From assembly GCA_964542785.1 (NCBI GenBank), contig CAZIUK010000001.1, forward strand, positions 133,115 to 197,114: DNA of 64,000 nucleotides, written 5' to 3'. Both the position numbers and the translations under genes were made by a program. Below the pieces are notes generated by a model that searched no databases, was not told the DNA's origin, and saw only the letters and a list, made by a program, of their open reading frames with translations. The first letter of the stretch is position 1. Each line of letters begins with the position of its first letter. This DNA is from an uncultured Planctomycetales bacterium (GTDB taxonomy: Bacteria; Omnitrophota; Gorgyraeia; Gygaellales; Profunditerraquicolaceae). Positions 5,584 through 61,223 of the stretch are shown piece by piece.

Positions 5584-5616
5584 GCAGTCCCTGTATTGCT
5601 GAGCGGGGACAGTCCC
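5584..5616 (+). repeat. GC-rich element after fabD containing CAGTCCCTG and palindromic GGGGACAGTCCC
   Basis: Shares the GGGGACAG core with family-2 palindromes; CAGTCCCT is directly repeated. Confidence 0.35.
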
Positions 5617-5642
5617 TAGAATTTATAACAAGGAGAATTAAT

Positions 5643-7974: not shown

Positions 7975-9233
7975 GTTATACAATCGCAGAAAAAATACTA
8001 ATCGCCCATTGTGGTAAAAAAGACATTGTTCCGGGAGAGTTTATAGAAGCTGATATTGACCTTGCTTTAGGCAATGATATCACTGCTCCTATAGCTATAG
8101 AGGAATTTAAAAGAGCAGGTTTCAAAAAGGTTTTTGATAAGAATAAGATAGCCTTAGTCCCGGATCATTTTACCCCGGCAAAGGATTTAAGAAGCGCGAA
8201 TCAATGCAAGGCGTTAGCTGATTTTTCCAAAGAGCAGAGGATTGTTAATTATTTTGAAGTTGGGCAGATGGGTATTGAACATGTCCTTCTACCTGAAAAA
8301 GGGTTGGTTCTTCCTGGTGATTTGGTTATTGGCGCAGATTCTCATACCTGTACCTATGGCGCTTTAGGATGTTATTCTACGGGGGTTGGTTCTACTGATT
8401 TAGCCAGAAGCTTTATTGACGGGAAGATTTGGCTTAAGGTCCCGGGCACGGTTAAGTTTATCTACAAAGGAAAACTTAATAAATGGGTAGGAGGGAAAGA
8501 CCTTATTCTATTTACTATCGGGAAAATAGGTGTAGATGGCGCTTTATATAAGGTAATGGAGTTCTCTGGTCCGGTTGTGCATAAGTTAGGTATGGATGAT
8601 AGATTTACTATGAGTAATATGGCTATTGAGGCGGGAGGTAGGGCTGGAATAATTGAGCCGGATAGCATAACTAAAAAATACATCTCTAAATTTAAAGCGC
8701 GTAAGCCCGTATTTTATTATTCGGACAAGGATGCACATTATGATAAGATTTATGTATGGGATATAACTGGGTTAGAGCCTCAGGTAGCTTGTCCGCATCT
8801 GCCAAGCAATGTAAAGCCGGTAAGTTCTTTAAAGGATATAAAAGTTGATCAGGTAGTCATAGGTTCTTGCACTAACGGCAGGATATCGGATTTAAGGGTT
8901 GCTGCTAAGATACTTAAAGGAAAGAAGGCTTCTTTAGGGGTAAAGTTAATTGTGTTTCCCGGGACACAGAAGATATATTTAGAAGCAGTTAGAGAAGGTT
9001 TAGCACAAATTTTTGTTAAGGCAGGGGGGATATTCTCTACTCCTACTTGTGGTCCTTGTTTAGGTGGGCATATGGGGATACTTACTGAGGGCGAAACTTG
9101 TATTGCTACTACTAATAGAAATTTTATCGGCAGGATGGGTTCGCCTAAGAGTTTTGTTTATCTATCAAGCCCTGCGGTAGCTGCTGCTTCTGCTATTACC
9201 GGAAGGATTACTCATCCTGACTTTGTAAGATAA
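7971..9233 (+). CDS. leuC: 3-isopropylmalate dehydratase large subunit (420-aa aconitase-family LeuC/HACN type)
   Basis: Aconitase-family Cys ligands (GSCTNGR, CGPCLG); followed by leuD and leuB. Confidence 0.8.
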
Positions 9234-9273
9234 TATGAAGGATTGTCCCGTTTAACCCAGGAAGTTTGAGTTT

Positions 9274-9327
9274 GGGGACAGCGACTTTTAAGCGACTTTT
9301 TAATAGGGTATAAAAGTCGCTGTCCCC
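9274..9327 (+). repeat. long perfect palindrome (family 2): GGGGACAGCGACTTTTA ... TAAAAGTCGCTGTCCCC, 17-bp arms, 20-nt loop containing a third AGCGACTTTTT copy
   Basis: Perfect inverted repeat immediately downstream of leuC; related copy at 29317-29354. Confidence 0.8.
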
Positions 9328-9349
9328 ATTAAACATTAAAAGGTGTATT

Positions 9350-9853
9350 ATGATGATTAAAGGCAAAGCGCATAAATTTGGCAATGACATCAATACCGAT
9401 GATATAATCTCTGCTAAATACCTTGTCTCTACTGATCTTAAAGAGTTAGGTAGCCATTGCATGGAGGCGATTGCCCCGGATTTTACTAAGAAAGTTATTT
9501 CTGGGGATATAATTGTTGCCGGGGATAATTTTGGTTGTGGCTCTTCACGCGAACATGCGCCTATGGCAATTAAGGGTTGTGGAGTATCGGCAGTCTTAGC
9601 TAAGAGTTTTGCCGCTATATTCTTTAGGAATGCTATTAATATCGGCTTGCCGTTTTTAGAACTTAAAGATACGGATAAAATTAATGATGGTGATATCCTT
9701 GAGATAGATTTAACAAGTGGAGAAATAAAGAATATTACCCAGAGTAAAATTTATTATACCCAAAAATTTCCGCATTTTTTACAGGAGTTAGTCAAAGAAG
9801 GCGGGTTGATGAATTGGGTTAGGGAAAAAAGGAAGGGGGATAAAGGTGTATAG
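9350..9853 (+). CDS. leuD: 3-isopropylmalate dehydratase small subunit
   Basis: GDNFGCGSSREHA swivel-domain motif. Confidence 0.8.
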   Translation: MMIKGKAHKFGNDINTDDIISAKYLVSTDLKELGSHCMEAIAPDFTKKVISGDIIVAGDNFGCGSSREHAPMAIKGCGVSAVLAKSFAAIFFRNAINIGLPFLELKDTDKINDGDILEIDLTSGEIKNITQSKIYYTQKFPHFLQELVKEGGLMNWVREKRKGDKGV

Positions 9854-10895
9854 AATAGCAGTTATACCCGGGGATGGCACTGGCCCGGAAGTGACTCAAG
9901 AGGGTTTAAAGGTTATGAAAGCCGCAAGCGAAAGGTACGGCTTTAAATATGAAACAGAGGATTTTGATTTTAGCGGGAAGAGGTATTTAAAGACTGGGAA
10001 ATTAGTTGCTGATAGCGATATCGAAAGGTTAAAGAAGTTCGATGCGATATATCTTGGGGCAGTAGGCGACCCTGATGTTAAACCTGGGGTTATTGAAACT
10101 GGGGTATTACTTAAACTAAGGTTTGCCTTAGACCAATATATAAATTTACGCCCGGTTAAACTTTACAATGCCTTGTTTTGTCCTTTAAAAGATAAAAATC
10201 CTGAAGACATAGATTTTGTGGTCATCAGGGAGAATTCTGAAGGGTTATATAAAGGTTTAGGAGAATTTAAGGATAAAGGAACTAAAGATGAAGTAGCTAT
10301 ACAGATTTCTTATAATACCAGAAAAGGTGCCGAGCGTTGTATCCGGTATGCCTTTGAGCTCGCCCGCAAGAGAAACAGAAGAAAGAAGTTAACCCTTTGC
10401 GGCAAGACCAATGTCTTAACTTTTGCTTGGGACCTTTGGGAGAGGGCTTTTTATGAGGTAGCAAAAGAATACCCGGATATTACGGTTGACTATGCGCATG
10501 TTGACGCAATTACTATGTGGCTTGTTAAAAATCCTGAGTGGTTTGATGTTATTGTAACTGATAATATGTTCGGTGATATCATTACGGATTTAGGGGCGAT
10601 GATTCAAGGTGGTATGGGTATTGCCGCCGGGGGGAACATTAATCCTTTAGGTGTCTCTTTATTTGAGCCTATCGGAGGAAGTGCTCCTAAATATACGGGG
10701 AAAAATATTATCAACCCTTTGGCTGCAATTTGTGCGGCAGGTATGATGCTTGAAAACTTAGGTGAGGGTAAGGCTGCTTTAGCAATAGAGAGTGCGGTTA
10801 TAAAGGTAGTCAGTAGTAAATTAAAATCTTTAAGCGCAGGCAAAATGGGTTATTCTACTACTGAGGTAGGGGATTTAGTAGTAGATAATCTATAA
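9846..10895 (+). CDS. leuB: 3-isopropylmalate dehydrogenase
   Basis: [14 protein letters not shown]-terminus; isocitrate/isopropylmalate dehydrogenase family; context with leuCD. Confidence 0.75.
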
Positions 10896-10971
10896 TTGTA
10901 GAGATAGGAACTGCCTTCGTAGATAAGTACATAAGCTAGAAGATTGTTTTTAGGGTTTAAGAGTTATTTTT

Positions 10972-11994
10972 ATGAAAAAATATAACGTAGCAGTCGTAGG
11001 GGTAGGTGTAGTTGGCATTGAGATGCTGCGTCTTTTAAAAGAACGCAACTTTCCGGTTGGATTTTTACGCGTCTTTGCCCGTTCAGCGCGCGATATTGAG
11101 GTTGATGGAAATAAATATTCAGTAGAGGCTATTAGCCCCGATGGTTTTAATGGTATTGATATAGCTTTATTTGCCGGCACAGAAGGAGAAAAAGGCGCTT
11201 CTGTAACTTATGCTTTAGATGCAGTAAAAAGAGGTAGCATAGTTATTGATAACGGTGCGGATTTTCGTATGGATCCTAAGGTGCCCCTTATTGTCCCTGA
11301 GGTAAATGCCGAAGATATAAAAAAACATAAAGGTATAATCGCAAACCCTAATTGTTCCACTACCCAGTTAGTAGTAGCCTTAAACCCCATACATAAAAAA
11401 GCAGGTATTAAGAGAGTTATAGTTACTACTCTGCAAGCTTCAAGCGGAGCAGGCCGTCAAGCAGTAGAGCAGCTTAAAGAAGAATCTTCTTTAGTTATGC
11501 AAGGAGGTTTTGGCAATCTTCAGATAAGTGCTTCTATTAAAGCAATGCCTCAACAGTTAGCTTATAACGTTTTCCCCCATATAGGTGGTTTTGCTGAGGG
11601 AGGTTATACGAGTGAAGAGTGGAAGTTAGTTAAAGAGACACATAAGATTATGCACGCTCCTAAGATAAAGATATCTGCTACTACGGTAAGAGTCCCTGTG
11701 CGCACCGGGCATTCAGAGTCAATATATATAGAGACCGCAAAACATATAAGCGTTGAGAAGGTAAGAGAAGTTTTGTCTAAGGCCCCGGGTATAATTTTAC
11801 AGGATGAGCCTAAGAATAATACTTATCCTATGCCTTATGATTGCGAAGGCAAGGACGAGGTGTTTGTCGGGCGTATCCGCTCTGACGCTTACGTTAAGAA
11901 TGGACTATGGCTTTGGGCAGTGGCGGATAATTTGCGCAAAGGAGCGGCTACTAATGCCCTGCAGATTGCAGAATGCCTGATAAAAAAGAATTAA
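10972..11994 (+). CDS. asd: aspartate-semialdehyde dehydrogenase
   Basis: VAVVGVGVVG Rossmann motif, NPNCSTTQ active-site Cys. Confidence 0.9.
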   Translation: MKKYNVAVVGVGVVGIEMLRLLKERNFPVGFLRVFARSARDIEVDGNKYSVEAISPDGFNGIDIALFAGTEGEKGASVTYALDAVKRGSIVIDNGADFRMDPKVPLIVPEVNAEDIKKHKGIIANPNCSTTQLVVALNPIHKKAGIKRVIVTTLQASSGAGRQAVEQLKEESSLVMQGGFGNLQISASIKAMPQQLAYNVFPHIGGFAEGGYTSEEWKLVKETHKIMHAPKIKISATTVRVPVRTGHSESIYIETAKHISVEKVREVLSKAPGIILQDEPKNNTYPMPYDCEGKDEVFVGRIRSDAYVKNGLWLWAVADNLRKGAATNALQIAECLIKKN

Positions 11995-12761
11995 GAAATA
12001 TAAGATTAACCTTAGAGTATAATGGAGCAAGGTATTGCGGTTGGCAGGTTCAAAATACCCGTTTATCTTTAAGCAATAGCCATAAAAAAAAGCGTAAAAA
12101 AAGTATCCAAGAGGTAGTTGAGGATTCCCTTCATAGATTATTATCAGAGAGAGTAAAAGTTATCGTATCCGGTAGGACTGATGCAGGCGTTCACGCCTTA
12201 GCCCAAGTAGCTAATTTTTATACCTCTTCTAAAATATCTCCAAGTAAATTAAATTTAGGTTTAAATAGTCTCTTGCCAGAAGACATAAAAGTATCCAATG
12301 TAAAAGAGGTGCCCAGCTCTTTTCATAGCCGCTACTCTTGTAAGTCAAAGCTCTACCGCTATACAATATTAAACCGTAAACATTCTTCTCCCTTGATGCA
12401 GGGTAAGGTTTTTTTCTATCCCTTTTTTTTGGATATTGAAGCTATGCGAAGTGAGTCTAAAATTTTATTAGGCAGGCATAACTTTAGTGCTTTTTGCGGC
12501 TCTTTAGGCAGGGATAGAGATCCGGTTAAAACTATCAAGAAACTCTCTATTTTACGTAAAAAAGACCTTATTATTATTGATATAGAAGGGGATGGTTTTC
12601 TATATAATATGGTAAGAAATATTGTAGGTACTCTTATTTTAGCCGGAAGAGGAAAGGTTTCTAAAGGAGGCTTGAAAGATATCCTCCTTGCAAGAGATAG
12701 AAAGAAAGCAGGCCAGACCGCCCCTGCCTGCGGCCTTTGCTTAATTAAGGTGAAATATTAA
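11973..12761 (+). CDS. truA: tRNA pseudouridine(38-40) synthase TruA
   Basis: LEYNGARYCGWQVQ and GRTDAGVHALAQV catalytic Asp motif; true start uncertain. Confidence 0.85.
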   Translation: MPDKKELRNIRLTLEYNGARYCGWQVQNTRLSLSNSHKKKRKKSIQEVVEDSLHRLLSERVKVIVSGRTDAGVHALAQVANFYTSSKISPSKLNLGLNSLLPEDIKVSNVKEVPSSFHSRYSCKSKLYRYTILNRKHSSPLMQGKVFFYPFFLDIEAMRSESKILLGRHNFSAFCGSLGRDRDPVKTIKKLSILRKKDLIIIDIEGDGFLYNMVRNIVGTLILAGRGKVSKGGLKDILLARDRKKAGQTAPACGLCLIKVKY

Positions 12762-13206
12762 TTATATGTTAAGAGCAAAATTTGAAAATATACCTTGGCT
12801 CTTTTTTTCTAAATTAACAATTATTTTGGCTTCCCGATGAATATAAAAAAGCCGTTTCAATAGTAAAAGAGAATATTAGCTATAAGTAGCCTCTCTGGTA
12901 GGGCTAGCGCTAATGTGCTTTTATTATCTTTATAAGCATTGGGTTGCTTGAATTTGAAGAATAACTGATAAGTATTAGCTTTGCGCATAAAGTCAGCGGT
13001 AATGGGTATAAACTCTATTTGTTGGCTTTAATGTGGTTCTTCTCTTGACCAAAATAACTAAAATGATAAAATAATAATTGGTTGTATTAATTTAACAATG
13101 CTAAAAAGTATTTTTTCCCCTATTTTTCTAACCTTTACTATTGATATATTATGAAGATGCCTGCTTTAGGCAATTTTCTGGTTATCTTAAATCCTCTTTT
13201 TAAAAA

Positions 13207-15474
13207 ATGATAAAACGCTTATGCCAAGGTATTTGGATATTATTAGAAAAAACCCTAAATATTTCTATTTTTTTGGCAACATTTTCCCTTATCTTCGTTT
13301 TGGCCCACCTAGCAATCAGAGATTTAGATATTTGGCTGCACTTAAAGGCAGGGGAAATTATTTTACAAAATAAAGCTATCCCTATTTACGATATTTTTTC
13401 TTTTACCCTTCAGGGAAAGCCGTGGATTAATCATTCTTGGCTATTCCAGGTTATAACTTACTTAACTTTTAATATCGGGCAGGTAGAAGCCCTTATTTTA
13501 TTACAAACATTCATTCTAATTTTAGGATTTTTATTTTTATTTCTGATTGGATACAGGCTTACTAATTCTTTTTTTAAAACCGCAATTTTTATACTTCTTG
13601 TAATATATGCTACTATGCTAAGATTTAATATCAGGCCCGATATCTTTAGCATCCTATTCTTTACTATCTACCTTTATTGTTTGAAGTTTCATTCTAAAAA
13701 AAAGGCTATTTACCTACTGATTCCTATTCAAATCCTCTGGGTAAATATCCACGGATACTTTTTCTTGGGAATATTGCTTGTTTTTTTCTTTATTTTTGCT
13801 GAATTTTTAAGGCGCCGTCTTAAATTCATTCCTAAGGATATAAGTGAGGAATCCGCGATTGACCCTATTGCCTATAAAAACCTGCAGAAATTATTTTATT
13901 TTGTTATTTTAGTTTCTTTTATTAATCCTAATGGATTGCGCGGAATGTTTTACCCTTTATCTATCATTAAAGAAACTATCTTAGGGGAAAACCGTTTATT
14001 TTTTAATTTTATATCCGAATTACGGCCGGTTTTTGGGACAGAATTATTTTTCTTTCCGTATTATGCCGCTATCATCATTTTATCGTTTCTTTTAATAATT
14101 GTTAATTTTAAAAAATTCAAGATAATAGATGCTATTCTTTTAATTTTTTTTACTTTTTTTTCTTTTATCATAAGGCATATCCAATTTGGTTCCTATGTAG
14201 GTTTTTTAATTATACTTTCTTATTTAGACCCTGCAATAAGCAAGATAACCTTGGAGTTTCCGCATAAAAAAAAGGTTTTCTATGCTTTAAAATATATAAT
14301 AATAATTTTATTCCTAACCTGGATAGGAGTTAAAATTCGTAATACTTTATTGGACAATTTTTATTATAATTTTGAAAATGAAGAAACCGAAACTTACCTT
14401 TTAGGCGTCGCAGATAGCACTTACCCTAAAAAAGCGGTAGATTTTATCCTAAGAAACAATATCCCCGGGAATATGTTCAATGATTTTAATTCCGGAGCTT
14501 ACCTTATAGGAAAAACTTATCCTAGAAGAAAAGTCTTTATAGATGGGCGTACCGAAGTATACGGCCAGGATTTCGTTAAGGCTTATGATAAAATAATAAA
14601 AAAGGCGGATATCTCCGAGTTTAAAAAATTAATAGATAAATATAATTTAAACGCTGCGTTTTTTAATATAGCCCCTGGTTATCCTAAAGAATTAATGAAT
14701 TATCTCTATCTAAATCCTGAATGGAAGTTGGTGTTTTTTAGTGATTCAGGGATAGTTTTTTTAAAAGATACCCAGTTAAATCGTGATATTATCAATAAAT
14801 ATGAAATAAACTTTAAAAAATATTCGCCTCCTGTTGTAGAGATTAAAAAAATAGGGTTACTAAAAAATGTTTACCCTTATTCTTATATCAGAAGGGGATT
14901 TCTTTTGCTTTCTTTTGAAGAATATGATGCGGCTATCAGAGAAGCTCAAGAAGCGCTTAGGATAATGCCCGGTTCTTATGAGGCGTATCTTATTATGGGT
15001 AGAGCTTATTTAAGCAAAGGTTTCTACCGAGAAGCTGAGGATTATTTAAGAAAGGTGCTTTTAGTAAATCCAAACAACCTGGAAGGGTTGGTTGCCTTAG
15101 GGGAAAGCCTTAAGGAGCTTACGGAGTATGACCTGGCTATACAAGTTTTAGATTTAGCCCTTAATTTTAATAAAAATTATGCCCCAGCTTACTACGAATT
15201 AAGCAAGGTTTATTCTTTGATGGGCAATATGCCTAAGGCACTTGAAAACTTAAACCAGGCTCTGCTATACGCCCCTGAAAGCGCGCAATATCATTTAGAG
15301 TTTGGCCAATTGCTTTTTGCCTTAGCTGAATATAATAAAGATAAAAAATTAGCACTAAAATCCCAGATAGCTTTAGAAAAGGCCTATAAATTAAATTATA
15401 ACGGGAAACAGGATTTATTGGACCGGGTTGATAGCGGGCTCAAAGAAATCAAATCTTTTCTATCCAGTAAATAG
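13207..15474 (+). CDS. polytopic integral membrane protein (about 10-12 TM helices, GT-C/PMT-like architecture) with C-terminal TPR repeats
   Basis: N-terminal 400 aa highly hydrophobic; C-terminal about 250 aa TPR-like (AYLIMGRAYLSKGFYREAEDYLRKVL etc.); isolated by a 445-nt AT-rich upstream gap. Confidence 0.4.
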   Translation: MIKRLCQGIWILLEKTLNISIFLATFSLIFVLAHLAIRDLDIWLHLKAGEIILQNKAIPIYDIFSFTLQGKPWINHSWLFQVITYLTFNIGQVEALILLQTFILILGFLFLFLIGYRLTNSFFKTAIFILLVIYATMLRFNIRPDIFSILFFTIYLYCLKFHSKKKAIYLLIPIQILWVNIHGYFFLGILLVFFFIFAEFLRRRLKFIPKDISEESAIDPIAYKNLQKLFYFVILVSFINPNGLRGMFYPLSIIKETILGENRLFFNFISELRPVFGTELFFFPYYAAIIILSFLLIIVNFKKFKIIDAILLIFFTFFSFIIRHIQFGSYVGFLIILSYLDPAISKITLEFPHKKKVFYALKYIIIILFLTWIGVKIRNTLLDNFYYNFENEETETYLLGVADSTYPKKAVDFILRNNIPGNMFNDFNSGAYLIGKTYPRRKVFIDGRTEVYGQDFVKAYDKIIKKADISEFKKLIDKYNLNAAFFNIAPGYPKELMNYLYLNPEWKLVFFSDSGIVFLKDTQLNRDIINKYEINFKKYSPPVVEIKKIGLLKNVYPYSYIRRGFLLLSFEEYDAAIREAQEALRIMPGSYEAYLIMGRAYLSKGFYREAEDYLRKVLLVNPNNLEGLVALGESLKELTEYDLAIQVLDLALNFNKNYAPAYYELSKVYSLMGNMPKALENLNQALLYAPESAQYHLEFGQLLFALAEYNKDKKLALKSQIALEKAYKLNYNGKQDLLDRVDSGLKEIKSFLSSK

Positions 15475-15545
15475 TTATAGCTTTAAAGTCAACAGAAAAC
15501 ACCGGATTTATTTTTATTTTGCTAGTGTAAATTTGTAAAAAATGT

Positions 15546-15573
15546 TTGACTTAACTAATAAATATGCTATAAT
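15546..15573 (+). promoter_or_regulatory. sigma70-type promoter for rplM-rpsI: TTGACT, 16-nt spacer, TATAAT
   Basis: Near-consensus -35/-10 pair ending 9 nt before the rplM ATG. Confidence 0.55.
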
Positions 15574-15582
15574 TTTAATTCT

Positions 15583-16014
15583 ATGACTAAGACTTATTCA
15601 GCAAAAAAGAAAGATATAAAAAGAAACTGGTATCTGGTGGATGTAAAGGGCAAGGTATTAGGCCGCTTTGCTTCTAAGGTTGCGGCAATCTTGCGCGGCA
15701 AGCATAAACCTATATACACCCCCCATGTAGATACCGGGGATGCGGTTATTATTATTAATGCCGCTAAGTTAAGAGTAACCGGAAGAAAGGCTAAGCAGAA
15801 AGTCTACCGTCGTTACTCCGGATATCCGAGCGGATTAAAAGAGGTTTCTTTTGAGGTAATGCTTGAGAATAAACCTGAGACTGTGGTTAAGCTCGCAGTA
15901 AGGCGTATGCTTCCTAAGGGTAAGTTAGGCACTGATATGCTCAAAAAATTAAAGGTATACGCTGATGAAAAGCATAATCATAAAGCGCAGAATCCACAAA
16001 TTTTGGAGGTTTAA
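15583..16014 (+). CDS. rplM: 50S ribosomal protein L13
   Basis: RNWYLVDVKGKVLGR... PHVDTGD conserved L13 core. Confidence 0.9.
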   Translation: MTKTYSAKKKDIKRNWYLVDVKGKVLGRFASKVAAILRGKHKPIYTPHVDTGDAVIIINAAKLRVTGRKAKQKVYRRYSGYPSGLKEVSFEVMLENKPETVVKLAVRRMLPKGKLGTDMLKKLKVYADEKHNHKAQNPQILEV

Positions 16015-16022
16015 TTAAGGCA

Positions 16023-16418
16023 ATGAGTGAAACAGTAAGGTATGCAGCAGTAGGTAGGCGTAAGGAGTCAGTGGCGAGGGTTCAACTTATGCCGGGGAAA
16101 GGTTTATTTAAAGTAAACAAACGTCCTTATGAGAAGTATTTCTTAAGGGAGACTGATAGGATTATAGTAAAACAACCATTGGAAGCCACCAATAATATAA
16201 ATAAATACGACGTTATCGCAAATATTAGAGGTGGAGGTTTAACCGGGCAAGCAGGCGCTTTGCGCCTTGGCATATCGCGTGCTTTAGTTTTAATAGATCC
16301 TGCTTTTAAGGATTTATTGCGTAAGCAAGGTTATTTAACCCGTGACCCCCGGGCTAAGGAACGTAAGAAATACGGCCAGAAGGGCGCGCGTAAACGCTTC
16401 CAGTGGACTAAGAGGTAG
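16023..16418 (+). CDS. rpsI: 30S ribosomal protein S9
   Basis: C-terminal RDPRAKERKKYGQKGARKRFQWTKR. Confidence 0.9.
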   Translation: MSETVRYAAVGRRKESVARVQLMPGKGLFKVNKRPYEKYFLRETDRIIVKQPLEATNNINKYDVIANIRGGGLTGQAGALRLGISRALVLIDPAFKDLLRKQGYLTRDPRAKERKKYGQKGARKRFQWTKR

Positions 16419-16459
16419 GCAGATGTAAGTTATAGTTAAGATAGAACAAAGTATTTATG

Positions 16460-16493
16460 ATCCCGCTTGAAGCTTAGAGCGGGATTTTTCTTT
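16460..16493 (+). terminator. rho-independent terminator after rpsI
   Basis: ATCCCGC / GCGGGAT stem followed by TTTTTCTTT. Confidence 0.5.
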
Positions 16494-16509
16494 CCGACGA
16501 TAAAATAAC

Positions 16510-16538
16510 TTGACTATATAGTTATTTTGTTCTAATAT
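16510..16538 (+). promoter_or_regulatory. putative sigma70 promoter for the arg operon: TTGACT, 17-nt spacer, TAATAT
   Basis: Located between the rpsI terminator and the argC RBS (AGGAGA). Confidence 0.45.
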
Positions 16539-16564
16539 TAAATCATTACGAGGAGAAAAGATTA

Positions 16565-17596
16565 ATGCTTAAAGTAGGAGTAGTTGGGATAACTGGTTAT
16601 ACAGGCCAAGAGTTAATCCGCATTCTTTTAAAACATCCAAAGGTAAAGATAACCGGTCTTTTTTCTACTAGTTCTTATAATAAAAAGGCAAAAGAAGTAC
16701 TCTTAGGTTTTGCATCTAAATTAAATCTAATTTGTAGCAAGCCCGATATTAAAGAAATCAAAGAAAAGTGTGAGCTTGTTTTTTTGGCCTTGCCGCATAC
16801 AGCCTCAATAGAGATCGCTACAATGCTTCTTAAGGCAGGCTTAAAAGTTATTGACCTAAGTGCAGACTTTCGTTTTAAAGACTTAAAAACATACTCTAAG
16901 TTTTATGGGGTTAAGCGTAGAGTTTCTGTAGAAACTAAAAGAGCAGTTTATGGTATTCCGGAGTTAAATAAAACACAAATTAAAAATGCAGCTTTTATTG
17001 CTAATCCTGGCTGTTATCCTACTGCGGCGATACTCTCTTTAGCTCCCTTAATTAAGGCTAATTTAATTGATTTATCAACGATAGTTATTGATGCTAAGTC
17101 CGGAGTAAGCGGAGCAGGAAGGAAAAGGGCAGAAGAGTTTTTCTTAGATCCTAATCTTAGGGAAGATTTTAAGGCTTATAAGGTAGGAATTCATCAGCAT
17201 GCCCCTGAGATAGAACAAGAGTTAACTAAGATCGCAAAGGAAAAAGTTAAAATTGTTTTTGTTCCTCACCTGTTGCCAGTAGAAAGAGGGATATTAGAGA
17301 CTATTTATGTAAAGAAGAACAAGAGCGCAAGAAAAAAATTCAAAAGAATAAATGTAGTTAATCTTTTCAAGAGTTTTTACAAGGAAGAACCCTTTGTCAG
17401 GATTAAAAAAGAAGGGGAGTATCCTTCTCTTAAAGATGTAGCAAAGAGCAATTTTTGCGATATCGGTATAAGGCAAGAGGAAGATAGCTTTATTATAGTA
17501 AGCGCAATAGATAATTTAATTAAAGGTGCTTCAGGCCAAGCAGTGCAGAATATGAATATAATGTTTGGGTTTTGTGAAGTAGAAGGGTTATTATGA
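16565..17596 (+). CDS. argC: N-acetyl-gamma-glutamyl-phosphate reductase
   Basis: VGVVGITGYTGQEL, NPGCYPTA active-site Cys. Confidence 0.9.
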   Translation: MLKVGVVGITGYTGQELIRILLKHPKVKITGLFSTSSYNKKAKEVLLGFASKLNLICSKPDIKEIKEKCELVFLALPHTASIEIATMLLKAGLKVIDLSADFRFKDLKTYSKFYGVKRRVSVETKRAVYGIPELNKTQIKNAAFIANPGCYPTAAILSLAPLIKANLIDLSTIVIDAKSGVSGAGRKRAEEFFLDPNLREDFKAYKVGIHQHAPEIEQELTKIAKEKVKIVFVPHLLPVERGILETIYVKKNKSARKKFKRINVVNLFKSFYKEEPFVRIKKEGEYPSLKDVAKSNFCDIGIRQEEDSFIIVSAIDNLIKGASGQAVQNMNIMFGFCEVEGLL

Positions 17597-18726
17597 AAGT
17601 ATGCAAAGAAGTAGTTTTGCCGCCGGGGTTTAAGGCATCCGGAGTTTCTTGCGGGATAAAAAAAACAGGAAAGTTAGATTTAGCGCTTATTTATTCTACT
17701 CTTCCTGCTAAAGCCGCAGGTTTATTTACGGTTAATAAGATTCCTGCAGCGCCGGTTGTATTCTGTAAAAATCTTTTACGAAAGAATACGTTTTTTAGGG
17801 GGGTATTAGTAAATAGCGGCAACGCAAATTCTTTTACCGGTAAAAAAGGGCTTCTTGATGCCGAATCTATTGCTGCCAGCGCTGCAAGGTCTTTAGGTTT
17901 AAAGAAGGGTGATATTTTAATTTCTTCTACAGGTATTATTGGCAAGGTTTTACCTGTAGGGAAAATTAAATCTGCCTTGCCCTTGCTTGTAAAGAGCCTT
18001 TCAGAAAAAAAGATAGACAATGCCGCAAGGGCAATAATGACTACAGACACATTTCCTAAGAAGGTAACTGTAAAGTTTAAGATAGGCAAAAAAATATTTA
18101 CCATATGCGGAATGGCTAAGGGCGCAGGTATGATTGCCCCTGATATGGCAACGCTCCTTGTTTTTATTTTTACGGATATTTCTCTGCCGCAGTCTTTATT
18201 AAGAAAGGCATTGCAAGCCGCAGTAGAAGGTTCTTTTAACTCTATAACTATTGATGGGTGTATGAGTACTAATGATAGTATTCTAATTTTGGCAAATGGA
18301 GCTTCTGGTAGATTGAGCATAAATCCTAGTAATCTGGGTATATTCCAAAAAGCCTTAAATACTCTTTGTCTTAGTTTGGCTAAGATGGTAGTAAATGATG
18401 CGGAGGGTGCGACTAAGTTTGTAGAGATTAAAGTATCGGGAGCTAAAAATTACTCACAGGCTAAAAGAGCCGCCCTTTCAATAGCCAACTCAAACTTATT
18501 CAAAACTGCTCTCTACGGGGAAAATCCTAATTTTGGCAGGATAGTCTCTGCTATTGGAGCAAGCAGGATAGATGTAGCGGAGGATAGCTTAAAGATAAAG
18601 GTAAGCTCTTTAAAGAAAAAAGATATTCTAGTAAGTGTATTTTTAGGTAAGGGAGAATCTAGCGCAATAGTTTATACTTCAGACCTTACCCCAAAGTATA
18701 TTAAAATCAATGCGGAGTATAATTAA
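17593..18726 (+). CDS. argJ: bifunctional ornithine acetyltransferase / N-acetylglutamate synthase ArgJ
   Basis: ATLLVFIFTD self-cleavage region, GATKFVEIKVSGA. Confidence 0.9.
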   Translation: MKVCKEVVLPPGFKASGVSCGIKKTGKLDLALIYSTLPAKAAGLFTVNKIPAAPVVFCKNLLRKNTFFRGVLVNSGNANSFTGKKGLLDAESIAASAARSLGLKKGDILISSTGIIGKVLPVGKIKSALPLLVKSLSEKKIDNAARAIMTTDTFPKKVTVKFKIGKKIFTICGMAKGAGMIAPDMATLLVFIFTDISLPQSLLRKALQAAVEGSFNSITIDGCMSTNDSILILANGASGRLSINPSNLGIFQKALNTLCLSLAKMVVNDAEGATKFVEIKVSGAKNYSQAKRAALSIANSNLFKTALYGENPNFGRIVSAIGASRIDVAEDSLKIKVSSLKKKDILVSVFLGKGESSAIVYTSDLTPKYIKINAEYN

Positions 18727-19583
18727 TGATGAAAGAAGCGATTAAAAAGGCAGATGTTTTAATTGAAGCATTACCTTATATAAAGAGGTTTCAAAAAAAG
18801 ATAATTGTAATAAAATACGGCGGTAGTATTTTAGGAGAAGAAAAAATCCGTAAAGGGGTGCTAGAGGACATAGTTTTTTTGAGTTTTATGGGTTTGCGCC
18901 CCGTCTTGGTTCACGGCGGAGGCCCTAACATAAGTGATCGAATTCGTTCTAGCGGAAAAAAAACTGAATTTGTAGACGGTATGCGTGTTACGGATAAAGA
19001 GACTTTGGGTATTGTAGAGGAGGAGCTTAAAAGCTTAAATGATACTATAGTTAAAGAGTTAAATGAGTTTGGGGCTAAGGCAATAGGCCTAAACGGGAAA
19101 GATGATGTCTTGATCCAGGCTGAAAAAAAGAAAGCAAAGATAGATTTAGGCTTAGTAGGGCGTATTCTTAGGATAAATACAGAGTTGCTTGATGCAGAAT
19201 TGAGGAAAAATAAGATAGTAGTAGTCCTGCCTATGGGCATAGGCAAGGATAAGGAGATCTATAATGTAAATGCGGATGAAGCGGCATCAAGCATTGCTGG
19301 ATCTTTAAAGGCCGAGAAGTTTGTCCTCTTGACTAATGTTAAGGGGATACTAAGAAATCCTGAGGATCCTAATTCGTTTCTTTCTACTCTAAATACCCAA
19401 GAGGTTTTAAGCCTTATTGAGGAAAACATAATTCAACAAGGGATGATCCCTAAGGTTCAAGCATGTGTAGAGGCCATAGAGAAAGGAGTTAATAAGACGC
19501 ATATTATTGACGCGCGCACACCGCATGGGCTATTGTTGGAGATATTTACGGATAAAGGGATTGGTACGGAGATAGTAAAATAA
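18726..19583 (+). CDS. argB: acetylglutamate kinase
   Basis: IVIKYGGS, VLVHGGGP amino-acid kinase motifs. Confidence 0.9.
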   Translation: MMKEAIKKADVLIEALPYIKRFQKKIIVIKYGGSILGEEKIRKGVLEDIVFLSFMGLRPVLVHGGGPNISDRIRSSGKKTEFVDGMRVTDKETLGIVEEELKSLNDTIVKELNEFGAKAIGLNGKDDVLIQAEKKKAKIDLGLVGRILRINTELLDAELRKNKIVVVLPMGIGKDKEIYNVNADEAASSIAGSLKAEKFVLLTNVKGILRNPEDPNSFLSTLNTQEVLSLIEENIIQQGMIPKVQACVEAIEKGVNKTHIIDARTPHGLLLEIFTDKGIGTEIVK

Positions 19584-20762
19584 ATGAAAAAAGAAGAAAT
19601 ATTCGATAGCTATCAAGAAAATATAATGCCTACATACTCAAAATCCCCTTTAATTTTTGTAAAGGGTAAAGGTTCAAGGTTGTGGGATATACATAATAAT
19701 CTTTATTTAGATTTTTTCCCGGGTTGGGGTGTTGGGAACTTAGGGCATTGTCATTCTAAGGTTATGTCAGCGATAAGAGACCAAGTGTCAAGGTTGATAT
19801 TTGTACCTAATAATTATTACCATGTTCCCCAGGCAAGGTTGGCAAGAGAGTTAGTTTTATCTTCTTTTCCTGCAAAGGTATTTTTTTGTAACTCCGGGGC
19901 AGAGGCAAATGAGGGGGCGATAAAATTTGCGCGTAAATTTGGCTCCGGAAGGTATGAGATAATTACTTTTGAGGGCTCTTTTCACGGTAGGACAATGGCT
20001 ACTTTAAGCGCTACGGGACAGAAAAAATACCAGCAGGGTTTCGAGCCTCTGCTGCAAGGGTTTAAGGCGGTTAAGTTTAATGATCTTCAGGCGGTTAAAG
20101 ACGCAATAACTGATAAGACTATAGGAATCATGCTTGAGCTTATTCAAGGAGAAGGGGGCATAAACGTAGCAGATAAGGATTTTGTTTTGGGTTTAAGAAG
20201 GCTCTGTGATGAGAAGGGCTTACTTTTGATTGTAGATGAAGTGCAGACCGGGATCGGCAGGACAGGAAAATTGTTCTCCTATCAACATTACGGGATAACC
20301 CCGGATATTATGACTTTGGCAAAAGCTCTTGGAGCAGGGGTGCCTATTGGTTGTATGTTAGTTAAAAAAGACATTGCAGATACCTTAACCGCAGGCACTC
20401 ATGCATCTACTTTTGGTGGCGGGCCGGTAATATGTAAGGCTGCACTTGCTGTCTTAAGGGCGATAAAAAAAGAAAAATTACTTATTAACGCCCAAAAGAT
20501 GGGTGAATATATGTTTACTCTGCTTAATGCGCTTAAAGGTAAGCATCAGGCTATAAAAGATATAAGAGGCATAGGCTTAATGGCAGGAGTTGAGTTAAGG
20601 GTTGAAGGCAAGGCAATAGTACAGGAGTGTATGAATAGGGGGTTATTGATTAACTGCACTCAAGAGAAGGTTTTAAGATTGATGCCTGCTTTAAATGTAA
20701 AGAAGAAGGAGATTGCTAAAGCCATCTTTACTTTAGACAGCGTTCTGGGGGACGCTTCCTAA
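19584..20762 (+). CDS. argD: acetylornithine aminotransferase
   Basis: Class III PLP aminotransferase (DEVQTGIGRTGK); last codons and stop lie inside a REP element. Confidence 0.85.
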   Translation: MKKEEIFDSYQENIMPTYSKSPLIFVKGKGSRLWDIHNNLYLDFFPGWGVGNLGHCHSKVMSAIRDQVSRLIFVPNNYYHVPQARLARELVLSSFPAKVFFCNSGAEANEGAIKFARKFGSGRYEIITFEGSFHGRTMATLSATGQKKYQQGFEPLLQGFKAVKFNDLQAVKDAITDKTIGIMLELIQGEGGINVADKDFVLGLRRLCDEKGLLLIVDEVQTGIGRTGKLFSYQHYGITPDIMTLAKALGAGVPIGCMLVKKDIADTLTAGTHASTFGGGPVICKAALAVLRAIKKEKLLINAQKMGEYMFTLLNALKGKHQAIKDIRGIGLMAGVELRVEGKAIVQECMNRGLLINCTQEKVLRLMPALNVKKKEIAKAIFTLDSVLGDAS

Positions 20763-20805
20763 GGTGCCAGGCTCCAGGAAAGTTTACTTAAAAATTATGA
20801 AAAAG
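20745..20805 (+). repeat. REP-like element copy A (CTGGGGGACGCTTCCTAAGGTGCCAGGCTCCA + conserved tail ...TTACTTAAAAATTATGAAAAA)
   Basis: About 85% identical to 61114-61178 and shares GGGGACGCT..AAGGTGCCAGGCTCCA with 46648-46680 and the inverted copy at 47387-47404. Confidence 0.8.
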
Positions 20806-28110: not shown

Positions 28111-28148
28111 AGGCTATTCCTGGAATTCTGGAATTTGGAGGATTGTAA

Positions 28149-29309
28149 ATGAGCTTTAAGCTTTCAAAAAAATTAGAGAGTTTGCCTCCCTATCTTTTTT
28201 TAGAGATAGATAAGGCAAAAAGAAAGGCCCGTGCTTTAGGACGCGATATAATTGACTTAGGCATAGGAGATCCTGACCAACCAACGCCTAATTATATAAT
28301 TGATGCATTACATAAGGCTGCTCTTGACCCTGCTAATCACCGCTATGCCTTAGATCAAGGCATGCCTTTTTTGCGCCAATCAATTGCCTCCTGGTATAAA
28401 AAGAGGTTTGCTGTATCCTTAAATCCTGATACGCAGATACTTCCTTTAATCGGATCAAAGGAGGGTATAGCGCATCTTCCTTTAGCTTTCTTAAATCAAG
28501 GGGATTATTCTCTAGTTCCTGACCCTTGTTATCCCCCTTATAAGGGTGGTACAATATTAGCAGGAGGGAGGATAAGCCTCATGCCTCTTTTAAGTGCAAA
28601 CTCTTTTCTTCCTGATTTTAATAAAATCCCCCTTTCAATTTCAAAAAAAGCAAAAATAATGTTTCTAAATTATCCGAATAACCCTACCTCTGCAATAGCT
28701 GATAAGTCATTTTTTAAAGAGGCAATTACCTTTGCTAAGAAGCATAAAATTATTATTATCTCTGATCTTGCTTATTCTGAAATGAGTTATGACGGCTATG
28801 TTCCTGTAAGCATGCTTGAGGTAGAGGGCGCTAAAGAAGTAGTTATTGAATTTCATTCTCTCTCTAAGTCTTATAATATGACTGGATGGCGTATAGGCTG
28901 GGCATGCGGCAATGAAAATCTAATAAGCGCATTAGCTAAAGTAAAATCAAATATTGACTCAGGCATCTTCTCTGCAATTCAAATTGCAGGGACTGCAGCA
29001 CTTAACAGTACGGATAAGCATATTAAAAGTATGGCTCTTCTTTATCAAGACAGGAGAGATGCCTTAGTTAAGGGGTTAAAGTCTTTAGGCTGGCAGGTAA
29101 ATAGCCCTAAGGCTACTTTTTACCTTTGGATTAAGACGCCAAAAAATTATGATTCTATAAAGTTTGCATCTTTACTTTTAAATAAAGCAGATATCGTTGT
29201 AACCCCGGGCGTTGGTTTTGGTAAATATGGAGAAGGCTATATCCGCATGGCACTTACAGTATCCAAAGAGAGGATGCAAGAGGCAGTACGCCGCTTAAGC
29301 AAATTATAG
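28149..29309 (+). CDS. dapL: LL-diaminopimelate aminotransferase (DapL-type class I aminotransferase)
   Basis: LPPYLFLEID N-terminal signature of DapL, SLSKSYNMTGWRIG PLP-Lys motif; embedded in dap cluster without dapD/dapE. Confidence 0.65.
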   Translation: MSFKLSKKLESLPPYLFLEIDKAKRKARALGRDIIDLGIGDPDQPTPNYIIDALHKAALDPANHRYALDQGMPFLRQSIASWYKKRFAVSLNPDTQILPLIGSKEGIAHLPLAFLNQGDYSLVPDPCYPPYKGGTILAGGRISLMPLLSANSFLPDFNKIPLSISKKAKIMFLNYPNNPTSAIADKSFFKEAITFAKKHKIIIISDLAYSEMSYDGYVPVSMLEVEGAKEVVIEFHSLSKSYNMTGWRIGWACGNENLISALAKVKSNIDSGIFSAIQIAGTAALNSTDKHIKSMALLYQDRRDALVKGLKSLGWQVNSPKATFYLWIKTPKNYDSIKFASLLLNKADIVVTPGVGFGKYGEGYIRMALTVSKERMQEAVRRLSKL

Positions 29310-29316
29310 TATAAAT

Positions 29317-29354
29317 GGGGACAGCCACTTTTTTATAAAAAAGTGGCTGTCCCC
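29317..29354 (+). repeat. 38-bp perfect palindrome (family 2): GGGGACAGCCACTTTTTTATAAAAAAGTGGCTGTCCCC
   Basis: Downstream of dapL stop; differs from 9274 copy by G to C in the left arm matched by a complementary change in the right arm. Confidence 0.8.
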
Positions 29355-29368
29355 ATCTAAGATTTAAT

Positions 29369-31716: not shown

Positions 31717-31758
31717 ACAGGGACGGCTCTGTTTCTTAAAATATAGAACCGTCCCTGT
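31717..31758 (+). repeat. GC-rich hairpin ACAGGGACGG...CCGTCCCTGT (10-bp stem) between the small basic gene and uvrA
   Basis: Perfect 10-bp inverted repeat; motif GGGACGGCTCTG resembles the REP core GGGGACGCTCTCC. Confidence 0.5.
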
Positions 31759-46647: not shown

Positions 46648-46680
46648 CCTGGGGGACGCTCTCCAAGGTGCCAGGCTCCA
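46648..46680 (+). repeat. REP-like element copy B (left flank of RAYT)
   Basis: CCTGGGGGACGCTCTCCAAGGTGCCAGGCTCCA. Confidence 0.8.
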
Positions 46681-46762: not shown

Positions 46763-47353
46763 ATGCCTAGAGCAAATAGGTTGATTTTGGACAGAGGGTA
46801 TTACCATGTCTTTACAAGAGGTAATGACCGAAAGCAAATATTTAGAAAAGATGCGGATTATCAGGTTTTTATTTCTATCGTAAAACGATACCTAAAAGAA
46901 GTTTTATTGGCAATAACAAATTATTGTTTAATGCCGAATCATTTACATTTGCTTATCTTTACTGAACGAGGAGATGATCTCTCTATTTTTATGAAGAATA
47001 TCCTACAGGTATATGCTAATTACCACAGAAAGGAATATAATTCCGTAGGGTTTCTTTATCAGAATAGGTTTAAAAGTTTATTAATAAATAATGATAGTTA
47101 TTTGTTAGAATGTTCCAGGTATATAGAGCGCAATCCATTACGGGGAAAATTAGTAAGCAATATATTTGATTGGCCTTGGAATAGTTTTTCCTACTATGCA
47201 AAAGGAGATACTAATGGTATAATTACCAAAGAAAATCCGGCCTTTCAATCTTTAGGTAGCTTACTTAAAGACAGAAGAACCTCTTATATTAATTATGTTT
47301 TACAGGAAAGGCCCTATGATGAGATTCTTGATAAGGTATTTGAATTAAAATAA
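46763..47353 (+). CDS. REP-associated tyrosine transposase (RAYT; IS200/IS605 Y1 HUH transposase family)
   Basis: YHVFTRGN, HUH motif MPNHLHLL, catalytic-Tyr motif RYIERNPL; ATG 46763 preceded by GGAGGTGG RBS (track start 46754 is GTG). Confidence 0.75.
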   Translation: MPRANRLILDRGYYHVFTRGNDRKQIFRKDADYQVFISIVKRYLKEVLLAITNYCLMPNHLHLLIFTERGDDLSIFMKNILQVYANYHRKEYNSVGFLYQNRFKSLLINNDSYLLECSRYIERNPLRGKLVSNIFDWPWNSFSYYAKGDTNGIITKENPAFQSLGSLLKDRRTSYINYVLQERPYDEILDKVFELK

Positions 47354-47355
47354 GT

Positions 47356-47404
47356 CCTTGGGGACGTTCCCCAAGTGCCTGACACCTGGAGAGCGTCCCC
47401 CAGG
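47356..47404 (+). repeat. REP-like elements copy C (right flank of RAYT; hairpin plus inverted copy of left REP)
   Basis: CCTTGGGGACGTTCCCCAAG, then TGCCTGACACC, then TGGAGAGCGTCCCCCAGG. Confidence 0.8.
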
Positions 47405-47415
47405 GGACAGGTTTG

Positions 47416-47491
47416 GGGGCTGTAGCTCAGCTGGGAGAGCGCCTCGTTCGCAACGAGGAGGCCAGCGGTTCGATCCCGCTCAGCTCCACCA
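47416..47491 (+). tRNA. tRNA-Ala (anticodon CGC)
   Basis: 76-nt cloverleaf: acceptor GGGGCTG/CAGCTCC with G3:U70 Ala identity pair, D-stem GCTC/GAGC, anticodon loop TTCGCAA, T-arm AGCGG-TTCGATC-CCGCT, encoded CCA. Confidence 0.85.
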
Positions 47492-60077: not shown

Positions 60078-61179
60078 AAGGATAGTAATAAAGATAGGCT
60101 CAAGCCTTTTTTATGCTAAGGACGCTAAGCCCGATACTGCTGTAATCAGTAGTTTTACTAAAGAGATAGCAAATTTAATCCTTATAGGAAAAGAGGTGGT
60201 GCTTGTCTCCTCAGGCGCAGTTGCCTTAGGGATGTCCATATTAAAGATAGCTAAGAGGCCTAAGGATTTAAGCCTTTTGCAGGCAGCTGCTTCAATTGGC
60301 CAGCATGAGTTAATGCATTTGTATAGTACTTTTTTTAAGAAGCTATCCTTATCCTGCGGGCAGATACTTTTAACTTGGGATGATTTCTCAAACCGCGCGC
60401 GTTATTTAAACGCCAAAAATACTATCAACACACTTTTAAAACTAAAAAGTGTGCCGGTAATTAACGAAAATGATACCGTCTCTACTGAGGAGATAAAGTT
60501 TGGGGACAACGACCGGCTTTCAGCTTTGGTCGCGGCCATGGTAGGGGCTGATATTTTGGTTATTCTTTCAGATATAGACGGGTTATTGGATAAAAATAAA
60601 AAAGTTATCAAGGTTGTAGATAAAATTACCCCAGAGATTAAGGCGTTGGCATCTTCTACTAAAAGGACAACTTCTGTTGGGGGGATGGTTACAAAGTTAG
60701 ATGCTGTTTTAGTTGCTAACCGTTCAGGTATCCCTTGCGTAATAGCCAACGGCAGAAAAAAAGATATTCTTCAATCTGTTTTAGGCGATCCTCTAAATAG
60801 TGGCACGCTTTTTTTAGCTGAAGGAGATAAGCTTGACGCTAAGGAGCGCTGGATGGCGTTTGGCACTAAGGTTAAAGGGAATATAACGGTTGATGACGGA
60901 GCAAAGAAGGCATTGATTAATAATAAGAGCTTGCTTGCAGTAGGAGTTGTCTCTTGTGCAGGTAATTTTTCTTGTGGAGATATAGTGGGGATTTGCGATG
61001 CTAAGGGTTGTGAGTTTGCCCGGGGCAAGGCCTTTATTTCAATGACAGAACTTGAGAAGGTAAAGGGAGCTCGCTTTGCCAAAGAAGTCATCCACCGCAA
61101 CAACCTTGTTTTACTTGGGGACGCTCCCCAAGGTGCCAGGCTCCAAACAAACTTACTTAAAAATTATGAAAAAAAATAG
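60055..61179 (+). CDS. proB: glutamate 5-kinase (with PUA domain); C-terminal about 20 aa encoded by a REP element
   Basis: IVIKIGSSLF amino-acid kinase N-terminus, PUA domain; ORF reads through REP copy D to TAG at 61177. Confidence 0.85.
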   Translation: MLLRKKYKRIVIKIGSSLFYAKDAKPDTAVISSFTKEIANLILIGKEVVLVSSGAVALGMSILKIAKRPKDLSLLQAAASIGQHELMHLYSTFFKKLSLSCGQILLTWDDFSNRARYLNAKNTINTLLKLKSVPVINENDTVSTEEIKFGDNDRLSALVAAMVGADILVILSDIDGLLDKNKKVIKVVDKITPEIKALASSTKRTTSVGGMVTKLDAVLVANRSGIPCVIANGRKKDILQSVLGDPLNSGTLFLAEGDKLDAKERWMAFGTKVKGNITVDDGAKKALINNKSLLAVGVVSCAGNFSCGDIVGICDAKGCEFARGKAFISMTELEKVKGARFAKEVIHRNNLVLLGDAPQGARLQTNLLKNYEKK

Positions 61180-61223
61180 GAATTTTAGAAGTAAAGTGGT
61201 ACCTCTGGGAGCGTCCCCAAGAG
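61114..61223 (+). repeat. composite REP-like element copy D: hairpin CTTGGGGACGCTCCCCAAG + GTGCCAGGCTCCA + conserved tail with ATG + inverted hairpin CTCTGGGAGCGTCCCCAAGAG
   Basis: 61114-61178 is about 85% identical to 20745-20805; 61203-61223 is an inverted copy of the REP core. Confidence 0.8.

Follow-up and report, generated by a model that had tools for sequence, protein, structure and literature searches.

Transposase-linked repeats related to the window hairpins

RAYT-like genes that are flanked by terminal inverted repeats and lack GTAG REPs have been described as 'TIRtrons', and their enzymes as 'TIRYT' (Di Nocera et al. 2013, PMC3733652). Many TIRtron repeats share the sequence GGGGWSAS and form dispersed families that occur as singles, dimers and groups (PMC3733652). 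The TIRYT were described from about 26 genes of cultured Proteobacteria and Acidobacteria, with repeat families that are 'moderately abundant', and 20 of these 26 enzymes were subsequently placed in TnpAY1 subclass 2.1 (Quentin et al. 2018, PMC6006769), which is the same as RAYT group 1 (Bertels et al. 2017, PMC5581495). The signatures of subclass 2.1 are NHVH, W[EQ] and YIELNP, together with a C-terminal HTH-like domain; the flank consensus was restated as GGGG[AT][CG]A[CG], and no REP-like structures were found next to the genes of this subclass (Quentin et al., PMC6006769). Repeat counts were reported to be modest, at about 12 per replicon (Bertels et al., PMC5581495).

The two hairpins considered here lie in a 64,000-nucleotide stretch of DNA, the whole of which we call the window, that has a GC content of 38% and carries all of its sizeable ORFs on the plus strand. 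We estimate a probability of roughly 80% that these hairpins are REPIN-like dimers of the terminal inverted repeat (TIR) of a RAYT-type Y1 transposase, that they have been retained vertically and that they are present as RNA hairpins in the leu and dap operons, rather than being terminators. The 8-mer at the outer end of their arms, GGGGACAG, fits GGGGWSAS exactly. As with TIRtrons, inverted repeats of this kind flank RAYT-like Y1 genes (seven loci, all in other genomes), the repeats are dispersed in intergenic DNA as singles, dimers and groups, the enzymes carry the motifs NHVH, WQ and Y..NP, and the spread across phyla is wide and patchy. In contrast to the published cases, those described below come from Omnitrophota and many uncultured lineages, and most are long, perfect hairpin dimers. 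Furthermore, the HTH-like C-terminal domain of subclass 2.1 is undetected by Pfam in the enzymes studied here, and the only Y1 gene in the window itself (46763-47353) has a different, GGGGAC repeat at its flanks.

The doublet arrangement is that of the REPIN-RAYT systems of Pseudomonas and Enterobacteria, which involve RAYT groups 2 and 3 (Bertels and Rainey 2011, PMC3116915). In those systems as in the present one, two inverted units form a hairpin that is presumed to be the mobile unit, with singlets as its remnants, and copies are intergenic and often follow genes. The transposase gene lies between its own repeats, the repeat variant is specific to the enzyme, and there is long-term vertical inheritance at fixed sites. 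However, the window hairpins contain no GT[AG]G, their feet being gagttt/attaaa and ataaat/atctaa, without GTAG or GTGG. The repeat unit here is also not itself a palindrome, the enzyme belongs to a different subclass and the copy number is low (two in about 75 kb).

A further comparison is offered by CGTC-tagged REPs, short palindromic repeats that occur mostly as head-to-head dimers, carry a tag that is sometimes TGTC, and have 8-9-bp stems, 4-5-nt loops, an unpaired tag and no link to a transposase gene (Di Nocera et al. 2013). The TGTC tag resembles the CTGTCCCC end found here, but the motif in the present repeats is paired and transposase-linked. Because GGGGACAG fits the TIRtron consensus, the enzymes carry subclass 2.1 motifs and the doublet matches REPINs, we file the hairpins as REPIN-like dimers of a TIRYT, or subclass 2.1, repeat. 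This element type is already described and little studied, and the window hairpins are not a new class; a pair of palindromes that had lacked an explanation can now be assigned to a recognisable type of element, for which there is a candidate enzyme and whose recognition core is conserved.

Two perfect hairpins in operon-internal spacers

The spacer between leuC and leuD contains copy 1 (9273-9328, listed without strand), a dimer that forms a hairpin, TGGGGACAGCGACTTTTA / TAAAAGTCGCTGTCCCCA. Its arms (9273-9290 and 9311-9328) are 18 nt each, are 100% complementary and stand 20 nt apart. Copy 2 (29315-29356, also without strand) is a perfect palindrome, ATGGGGACAGCCACTTTTTTA/TAAAAAAGTGGCTGTCCCCAT, in the spacer between dapL and an HPPK (folK-like) gene, and extends the previously delimited 29317-29354 by one AT on each side. 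The gene identities derive from PF00330 aconitase for leuC and from LL-diaminopimelate aminotransferase for dapL. A preliminary description of the window had reported two long palindromes after these genes with a compensatory G to C change, and both points are borne out. The arms of both copies read GGGGACAGC[G/C]ACTTTT, and their sole difference, G or C (9283 versus 29326), is mirrored in the right arm, so that one compensated swap of G:C to C:G separates the two hairpins.

All four arms have GGGGACAG as their outer end. A search of the window with the 16-mer GGGGACAGCSACTTTT at up to two mismatches returned four matches, where 0.07 are expected, and relaxing it to three mismatches yielded nothing beyond these four. 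The source contig has a length of 646 kb; the source genome could be followed for about 75 kb (the 64-kb window plus 11 kb of flank), in which the hairpin is present in two copies, the extra 11 kb around the window containing no others. The predicted RNA folds are stable, with free energies of -37.4 kcal/mol for copy 1 (z = -8.4) and -33.4 kcal/mol for copy 2 (z = -7.7). An Rfam search of the window assigned no family to either hairpin, the only hit at gathering score being one tRNA (47416-47488). A literature search by sequence with GGGGACAGC and GCTGTCCCC retrieved nothing but articles in which the Widom 601 nucleosome sequence is given.

The spacing of the hairpins relative to the flanking genes bears on whether they could be rho-independent terminators or attenuators inside the operons, the latter being an option raised in the preliminary description. 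Copy 1 begins 39 nt after the leuC stop codon (9231-9233) and is followed after 21 nt by the leuD ATG (9350), whereas the corresponding distances for copy 2 are 5 nt from the dapL stop codon (29307-29309) and 12 nt to the next ATG (29369). Strong hairpins with a GC-rich base are what a terminator would offer, and in the Omnitrophota C20 genome bin the copies resemble bidirectional terminators in having runs of A and of T at either side. In the window, however, neither stem is followed by a T-run or U-tract, as had been pointed out before; CCCCAUUAAAC and CCCCAUCUAAG come next. A terminator scan covering copy 1 left it uncalled and found a canonical terminator at 16459-16486, and the hairpins stand between genes of one pathway. 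Because a U-tract is missing and the next start codon is only 12-21 nt away, the terminator or attenuator reading is unsupported, and we regard it as very improbable. An annotation of the window should list both hairpins as repeat elements, in preference to terminators or regulatory RNAs of unknown kind.

Their form and position are instead shared with the REP/BIME mRNA stabilisers of E. coli, which are likewise stable hairpins in operon-internal spacers just past stop codons, without U-tracts. REP elements of E. coli have been reported to affect the stability of messages or the expression ratio of neighbouring genes. The stems here differ from REP/BIME elements in being longer (18-21 bp) and perfect, and the functional parallel is one that we infer.

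Arm pairing in a widely dispersed family

The window hairpins belong to a family that reaches far beyond their source genome. A scan of one genome per species with the pattern GGGGACAGCNACTT-N(4-34)-AAGTNGCTGTCCCC, which holds the palindrome core with NN left free, identified 42 stretches in about 10 MAGs, including two Omnitrophota, Marinacidobacterales (Acidobacteriota), Elusimicrobiota, Syntrophobacteria, Oligoflexales and others. When the pattern was relaxed to GGGGACAGNNAYTT...AARTNNCTGTCCCC, at least 120 stretches on metagenome contigs matched, and multi-copy families with the same core are present in at least five bins. These contigs have GC contents of 27-72%, and with uncultured phyla included the GGGGWSAS repeat family is far wider than the roughly 26 cases first described. 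The palindrome pattern gave 0 matches in the viral contigs scanned, and a phage origin was rejected on this count.

Arm positions 9 and 10, which the pattern leaves free, are paired in 99% of 183 distinct hairpins, and all four pair types are represented. Position 9 is C-G in 74 hairpins, G-C in 57, T-A in 43 and A-T in 6, and position 10 is G-C in 78, C-G in 60, T-A in 38 and A-T in 2. When partners are shuffled among hairpins, only 33-35% match at these positions. Pairing also extends beyond the searched core, at 83-97% inward and 65-78% outward. The compensatory change between copy 1 and copy 2 is thus one case of a general rule, and conservation of structure in the hairpin family is strongly supported. 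Positions that are free in sequence and yet paired argue that pairing, and not base identity, would be required there, and would be easier to reconcile with a substrate in hairpin form than with two ends bound independently.

The preliminary description had taken the covariation as a sign of selection on the hairpin, and this view can be kept in part. The structure is indeed maintained, with 99% pairing in 183 copies, but covariation alone is no proof of selection on RNA, because the complementarity of a palindrome could also result from the making of dimers or from hairpin-templated correction.

A family defined by a short pattern raises the possibility that the likeness between the window palindromes and the repeats of other genomes reflects chance or convergence. 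By our own estimate, some distant bins (Bacteroidaceae, Litorilinea) have single-copy matches that could be random among the many long hairpins, terminator hairpins included, in 596 Gb, and such matches are given no weight here. Multi-copy families with the same core in at least five bins cannot be chance. Together with the four arm matches in the window against 0.07 expected, the orthologous copies in the relative MFD13470 and the recurrent linkage to one transposase clade (both described below), they leave chance as an explanation that is scarcely credible.

The family takes several forms. In the Omnitrophota C20 bin (L006-L042; for example, L026 1-200 and 600-700), at least 34 distinct dimers occur in 110 kb of retrieved loci, with the arm variants CGAC, GCAT and CCAT, two loop types in both orientations, and A5/T5 flanks. 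In L026 the repeat occupies nearly every spacer between successive pseudopilin genes. An integron attC array was entertained for this locus, where hairpins recur about 460-530 bp apart, and was rejected, the intervening ORFs being those of a type II secretion/pseudopilin operon. MFD13470 contains singles (L017:7799 and L043:593), dimers and three-arm forms. In many genomes (metagenome loci such as L075, L071, L122 and L093), each arm is bracketed by a short inverted repeat, as in CTGAACCGtc-GGGGACAGGTACTT-CGGTTCAG, so alternative folds are possible, namely that of the single unit, with GGGGACAGNNAC in its loop, or the long stem of the dimer.

Linkage to Y1 transposase genes

In L070, two hairpins bracket a 216-amino-acid ORF that matches the Pfam family Y1_Tnp (IS200-like transposase family). 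A tblastn search of the retrieved sequences with this protein revealed homologues in L027 (Omnitrophota C20), L079, L094, L043 (MFD13470) and the window. Overall, a Y1 (HUH) transposase gene lies between inverted arms or dimers at seven independent loci. The flanks are hairpins in L070 (at 288 on the left and 1019 on the right), L079 (1593 and 2277) and L027 of C20 (4431 and 5205), whereas those in L094 are a left single arm, GGGGACAGTCAC..., and a right inverted single arm, ...GTGACTGTCCCC. In MFD13470 the left flank is a single arm, GGGGACAGCGACTTTTTTT (L017:7799), and the right flank is AAAAAGTCGCTGTCCCC (L043, about 577-600); these transposase arms, GGGGACAGCGACTTTTT...AAAAAGTCGCTGTCCCC, are identical to the arms of the window hairpins. 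Two further homologues, 77-79% identical (L166 and L167/168), are flanked by AGGGACAGCGAC ... GTCGCTGTCCCT. Wherever dispersed copies are seen on the same contig or in the same genome (L094, MFD13470 and C20), their NN variant is that of the flanking arms.

The GGGGACAG-linked proteins match Pfam PF01797 and the NCBIfam model 'REP-associated tyrosine transposase' (E about 1e-19), scoring 67-71 bits with the latter, which is under its 80-bit equivalog cut-off. Five of these enzymes, 192-224 amino acids long, were compared, and all keep NHVH (HUH), HLWQ and Y[IV]E[RL]NP and have a common C-terminal IRKxTSTGRP stretch. A Pfam search of the enzymes at E <= 1 found no HTH domain, and a PDB sequence search with the MFD13470 RAYT gave no match at E <= 0.01. 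The transposase clade is large, comprising 7,531 proteins at E <= 1e-20, many of them annotated from Omnitrophota. A stretch with the sequence GCCGCGTCTATTRAT(A/G)GTGA(G/A)G is conserved in L166 (1270-1350), L167 (110-190), the L017/L043 join and L027 (4500-4540), where it lies within the 5' leader of GGGGACAG-linked transposase genes in several Omnitrophota and may be a regulatory element.

The identity of the linked gene also bears on a reading in which the hairpins are MITEs of a DDE-type insertion sequence, with TIRs joined by internal deletion and mobilised by a cut-and-paste transposase. Such an element would look much the same, with a pair of inverted arms and little or no sequence between them, and Di Nocera et al. 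themselves called the units TIRs (PMC3733652). However, the Y1 HUH transposase is the only gene found repeatedly between arms. All-against-all clustering of the ORFs neighbouring hairpins placed the Y1 genes of the window, C20 and MFD13470 in one cluster and identified no other gene common across phyla. Furthermore, a filled and an empty dapL site, compared below, differ by no direct repeat or target-site duplication, and complementarity in 99% at free positions is expected of a hairpin substrate rather than of two independently bound ends. We regard a DDE-type origin as highly improbable. The suggestion in the preliminary description of a second REP/MITE family proves apt in the sense of REPIN-like dimers of repeats that flank RAYT/TIRYT Y1 transposase genes.

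Under this preferred reading, the hairpins would be head-to-head dimers (REPIN-like doublets) of a unit of roughly 17-20 nt, GGGGACAG-NN-AC-TT(T)n, and the unit would be the TIR of a RAYT-type Y1 (HUH) transposase (TIRYT/TIRtron, TnpAY1 subclass 2.1, RAYT group 1). Acting in trans on single-stranded DNA, the transposase would recognise the dimer in its folded state, in which the conserved GGGGACAG forms the stem foot, and would copy or move it into intergenic DNA. We infer this mobilisation on single-stranded DNA by analogy with E. coli TnpA-REP and with IS200/IS605 (PMC3479197, PMC6006769). The compensated G:C/C:G difference would mark two sub-lineages of the repeat, each with the same variant in both arms. 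Both window copies would have inserted before the split from the 88%-identical relative, with vertical inheritance since then. If both are transcribed as part of the leu and dap operons, as the model proposes, the very stable intercistronic RNA hairpins would most likely shield the message upstream of them against 3' exonucleases or modulate the expression of the flanking genes. The precedent of E. coli REP elements suggests that a role at the RNA level in these operons is probable.

Neither the window nor the additional 11 kb of flanking sequence encodes a GGGGACAG-type transposase. The samples from which the window derives also lacked homologues more than 80% identical to the MFD13470 enzyme; its closest non-self homologues, at 77-79% identity, come from other samples. 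Both hairpins of the window could thus be orphans in their source genome.

A more general proposal, which we put forward as speculative, is that subclass 2.1/group 1 RAYTs drive a population of REPIN-like hairpins across many phyla on one conserved core (GGGGACAG..AC.TT), and that copies such as the two in the window have been domesticated in Omnitrophota as operon-internal RNA hairpins under purifying selection. The repeats are commonly long, perfect hairpin dimers at conserved operon-internal sites, and they provide a concrete substrate for testing how this RAYT group, the largest and the least understood, works. Of chief interest are the wide spread of the family among uncultured phyla and its conserved operon-internal copies.

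Retention of the hairpins at orthologous sites

Both window hairpins have been retained vertically. The Omnitrophota MAG MFD13470 (GCA_049275655.1) is syntenic with window positions 8128-19006 at about 88% nucleotide identity. Its leuC-leuD spacer (L039) contains the same hairpin with the same G variant, and its dapL-HPPK spacer (L169) contains the palindrome of copy 2, again in the C variant, together with a 22-nt right-arm duplication of its own. In relatives at 78-79% DapL identity (L171-L174), the dapL site lacks the hairpin, and the spacers are 2 nt or 19 nt. The presence of the dapL hairpin in MFD13470 and its absence from L171-L174 therefore date the insertion after that split and before the split between the window and MFD13470 lineages. 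Comparison of the filled and empty dapL sites uncovered neither a direct repeat nor a target-site duplication. An aminotransferase in L022 was considered as a dapL orthologue and set aside as a 31%-identical paralogue. Within the syntenic region, about 2.8 kb of the window (12762-15537), with an ORF for 755 amino acids (13207-15474), is absent from L039 and represents an insertion or deletion between the two genomes.

The hairpins are identical between the window and MFD13470 at 80 of 82 positions. By comparison, divergence at four-fold degenerate sites is 0.296 (117 of 395), a rate at which the probability of no more than one difference in 70 hairpin positions (the arms of copy 1 and all of copy 2) is 6e-10. 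Alignable intergenic DNA is itself 81-93% identical, and against an intergenic baseline of about 10% divergence the conservation of the hairpins is only moderately unusual, with P about 0.01 in a rough calculation of our own. Hairpin-templated correction keeps arms complementary but would not stop paired changes from accumulating, whereas the G and C variants, each specific to its site, would be lost if copies were homogenised. Because both processes are insufficient, the simplest reading of these alignments is that some purifying selection acts on each window copy, as judged from only two loci.

Such retention is also what would be seen if the hairpins were host regulatory RNAs under selection (stabilisers or processing sites, both raised in the preliminary description, or modulators of translational coupling), with the likeness to transposase repeats reflecting their origin only. 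Orthologous retention, site-specific variants and 80/82 identity against a four-fold divergence of 30% all favour a host role, since selection at the level of the element alone cannot explain such retention at single loci. The placement of copy 2, 5 nt past the dapL stop codon and 12 nt before an ATG, between genes that almost abut in hairpin-less relatives, points the same way, as does the leuC frame of MFD13470, which enters the left arm and ends within the hairpin. Against this, alignable intergenic DNA is about 90% conserved in any case, and unrelated spacers of other genomes hold the same family. A host role is also compatible with a mobile origin and would form a layer above the interpretation preferred here. 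On balance we consider it a genuine possibility, if not one that we would expect to hold.

The preliminary description had also noted a third arm in the loop of copy 1, which might allow alternative pairing. Here part of the left arm of copy 1 is duplicated in tandem over 11 nt (9280-9301, plus strand), with AGCGACTTTTA at 9280-9290 followed by AGCGACTTTTT at 9291-9301. Because the orthologous leuC-leuD hairpin of MFD13470 (L039) has a single AGCGACTTTTT, the 'third arm' can be identified as this tandem duplication, and the comparison indicates lineage-specific slippage in place of a conserved third pairing element. Similar arm duplications arose independently in MFD13470 (L022:1195, L043:2267 and L169:3700-3723). 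Arm duplication can go well past three-arm forms, as in L091 (2340-2430), where the left arm occurs four times in a tandem array (three repeats of GGGGACAGGCACTTAACTCGAGATCT precede the dimer).

Other GGGGAC elements in the window

The RAYT-like Y1 transposase gene of the window (46763-47353, plus strand) matches Pfam Y1_Tnp with 53 bits and the NCBIfam model 'REP-associated tyrosine transposase' with E = 1.4e-19, and its product keeps the HUH (NHLH) and Y..NP motifs. This protein is only 28% identical to the enzymes linked to GGGGACAG arms; it is related context, and not the cognate enzyme of the two hairpins. The gene is flanked by inverted copies of another repeat, GGGGACGCTCTCCAAGGTGCC (about 46649-46675 and 47381-47403), with CCTGGGGGACGCTCTCCAAGGTGCCAGGC upstream and GGAGAGCGTCCCCCAGG downstream, just before a tRNA gene. 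Because its flanks carry a different repeat, the window holds two related repeat systems that share a GGGGAC core. The second repeat, YTGGGGACGCTYCCYAAGGTGCCAGGCTCC, is found at 46649-46680, 47358-47405, 20745-20775 and 61114-61221, and a longer tail, ...ACTTACTTAAAAATTATGAAAAA, is common to the copies near 20745 and 61114. It is probably the cognate repeat of the window RAYT, and presumably the 'first family' of the preliminary description. The downstream repeat abuts the tRNA gene (47381-47488 in all, with the tRNA at 47416-47488 scoring 66 bits), and GGGGACAG itself occurs at 47403, 13 nt before the tRNA.

A short hairpin 3' of fabD (5584-5616, plus strand) contains GGGGACAG and had been counted with the leuC and dapL palindromes. 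It shares only the 8-mer with their arms, does not match the 16-nt arm even at three mismatches and has a weak fold (-18.7 kcal/mol, z = -2.8), so that it is at most a candidate member of the family.

Related elements also vary between close relatives. The dapB-dapL spacer is 120 nt in L169 of MFD13470 (2381-2500) and 38 nt in the window (28111-28148), owing to an extra insert of about 80 nt and of GGGGAC type that is absent from the window. The insert is hairpin-like, GGGGACAC.../...GGGGCTGTCCCTAG, and its tail, GTCCCTAGAATTTAGGAGG, resembles the tail of the fabD element in the window, GTCCCTAGAATTTATAACAAGGAG (5612-5635). The insert represents presence/absence variation of related elements. 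Finally, a GGGAC-type hairpin in the window, ACAGGGACGGCTCTGTTTCTT / AAAATATAGAACCGTCCCTGT (31717-31758), lies just upstream of uvrA (31772) and is 93% conserved in L169.
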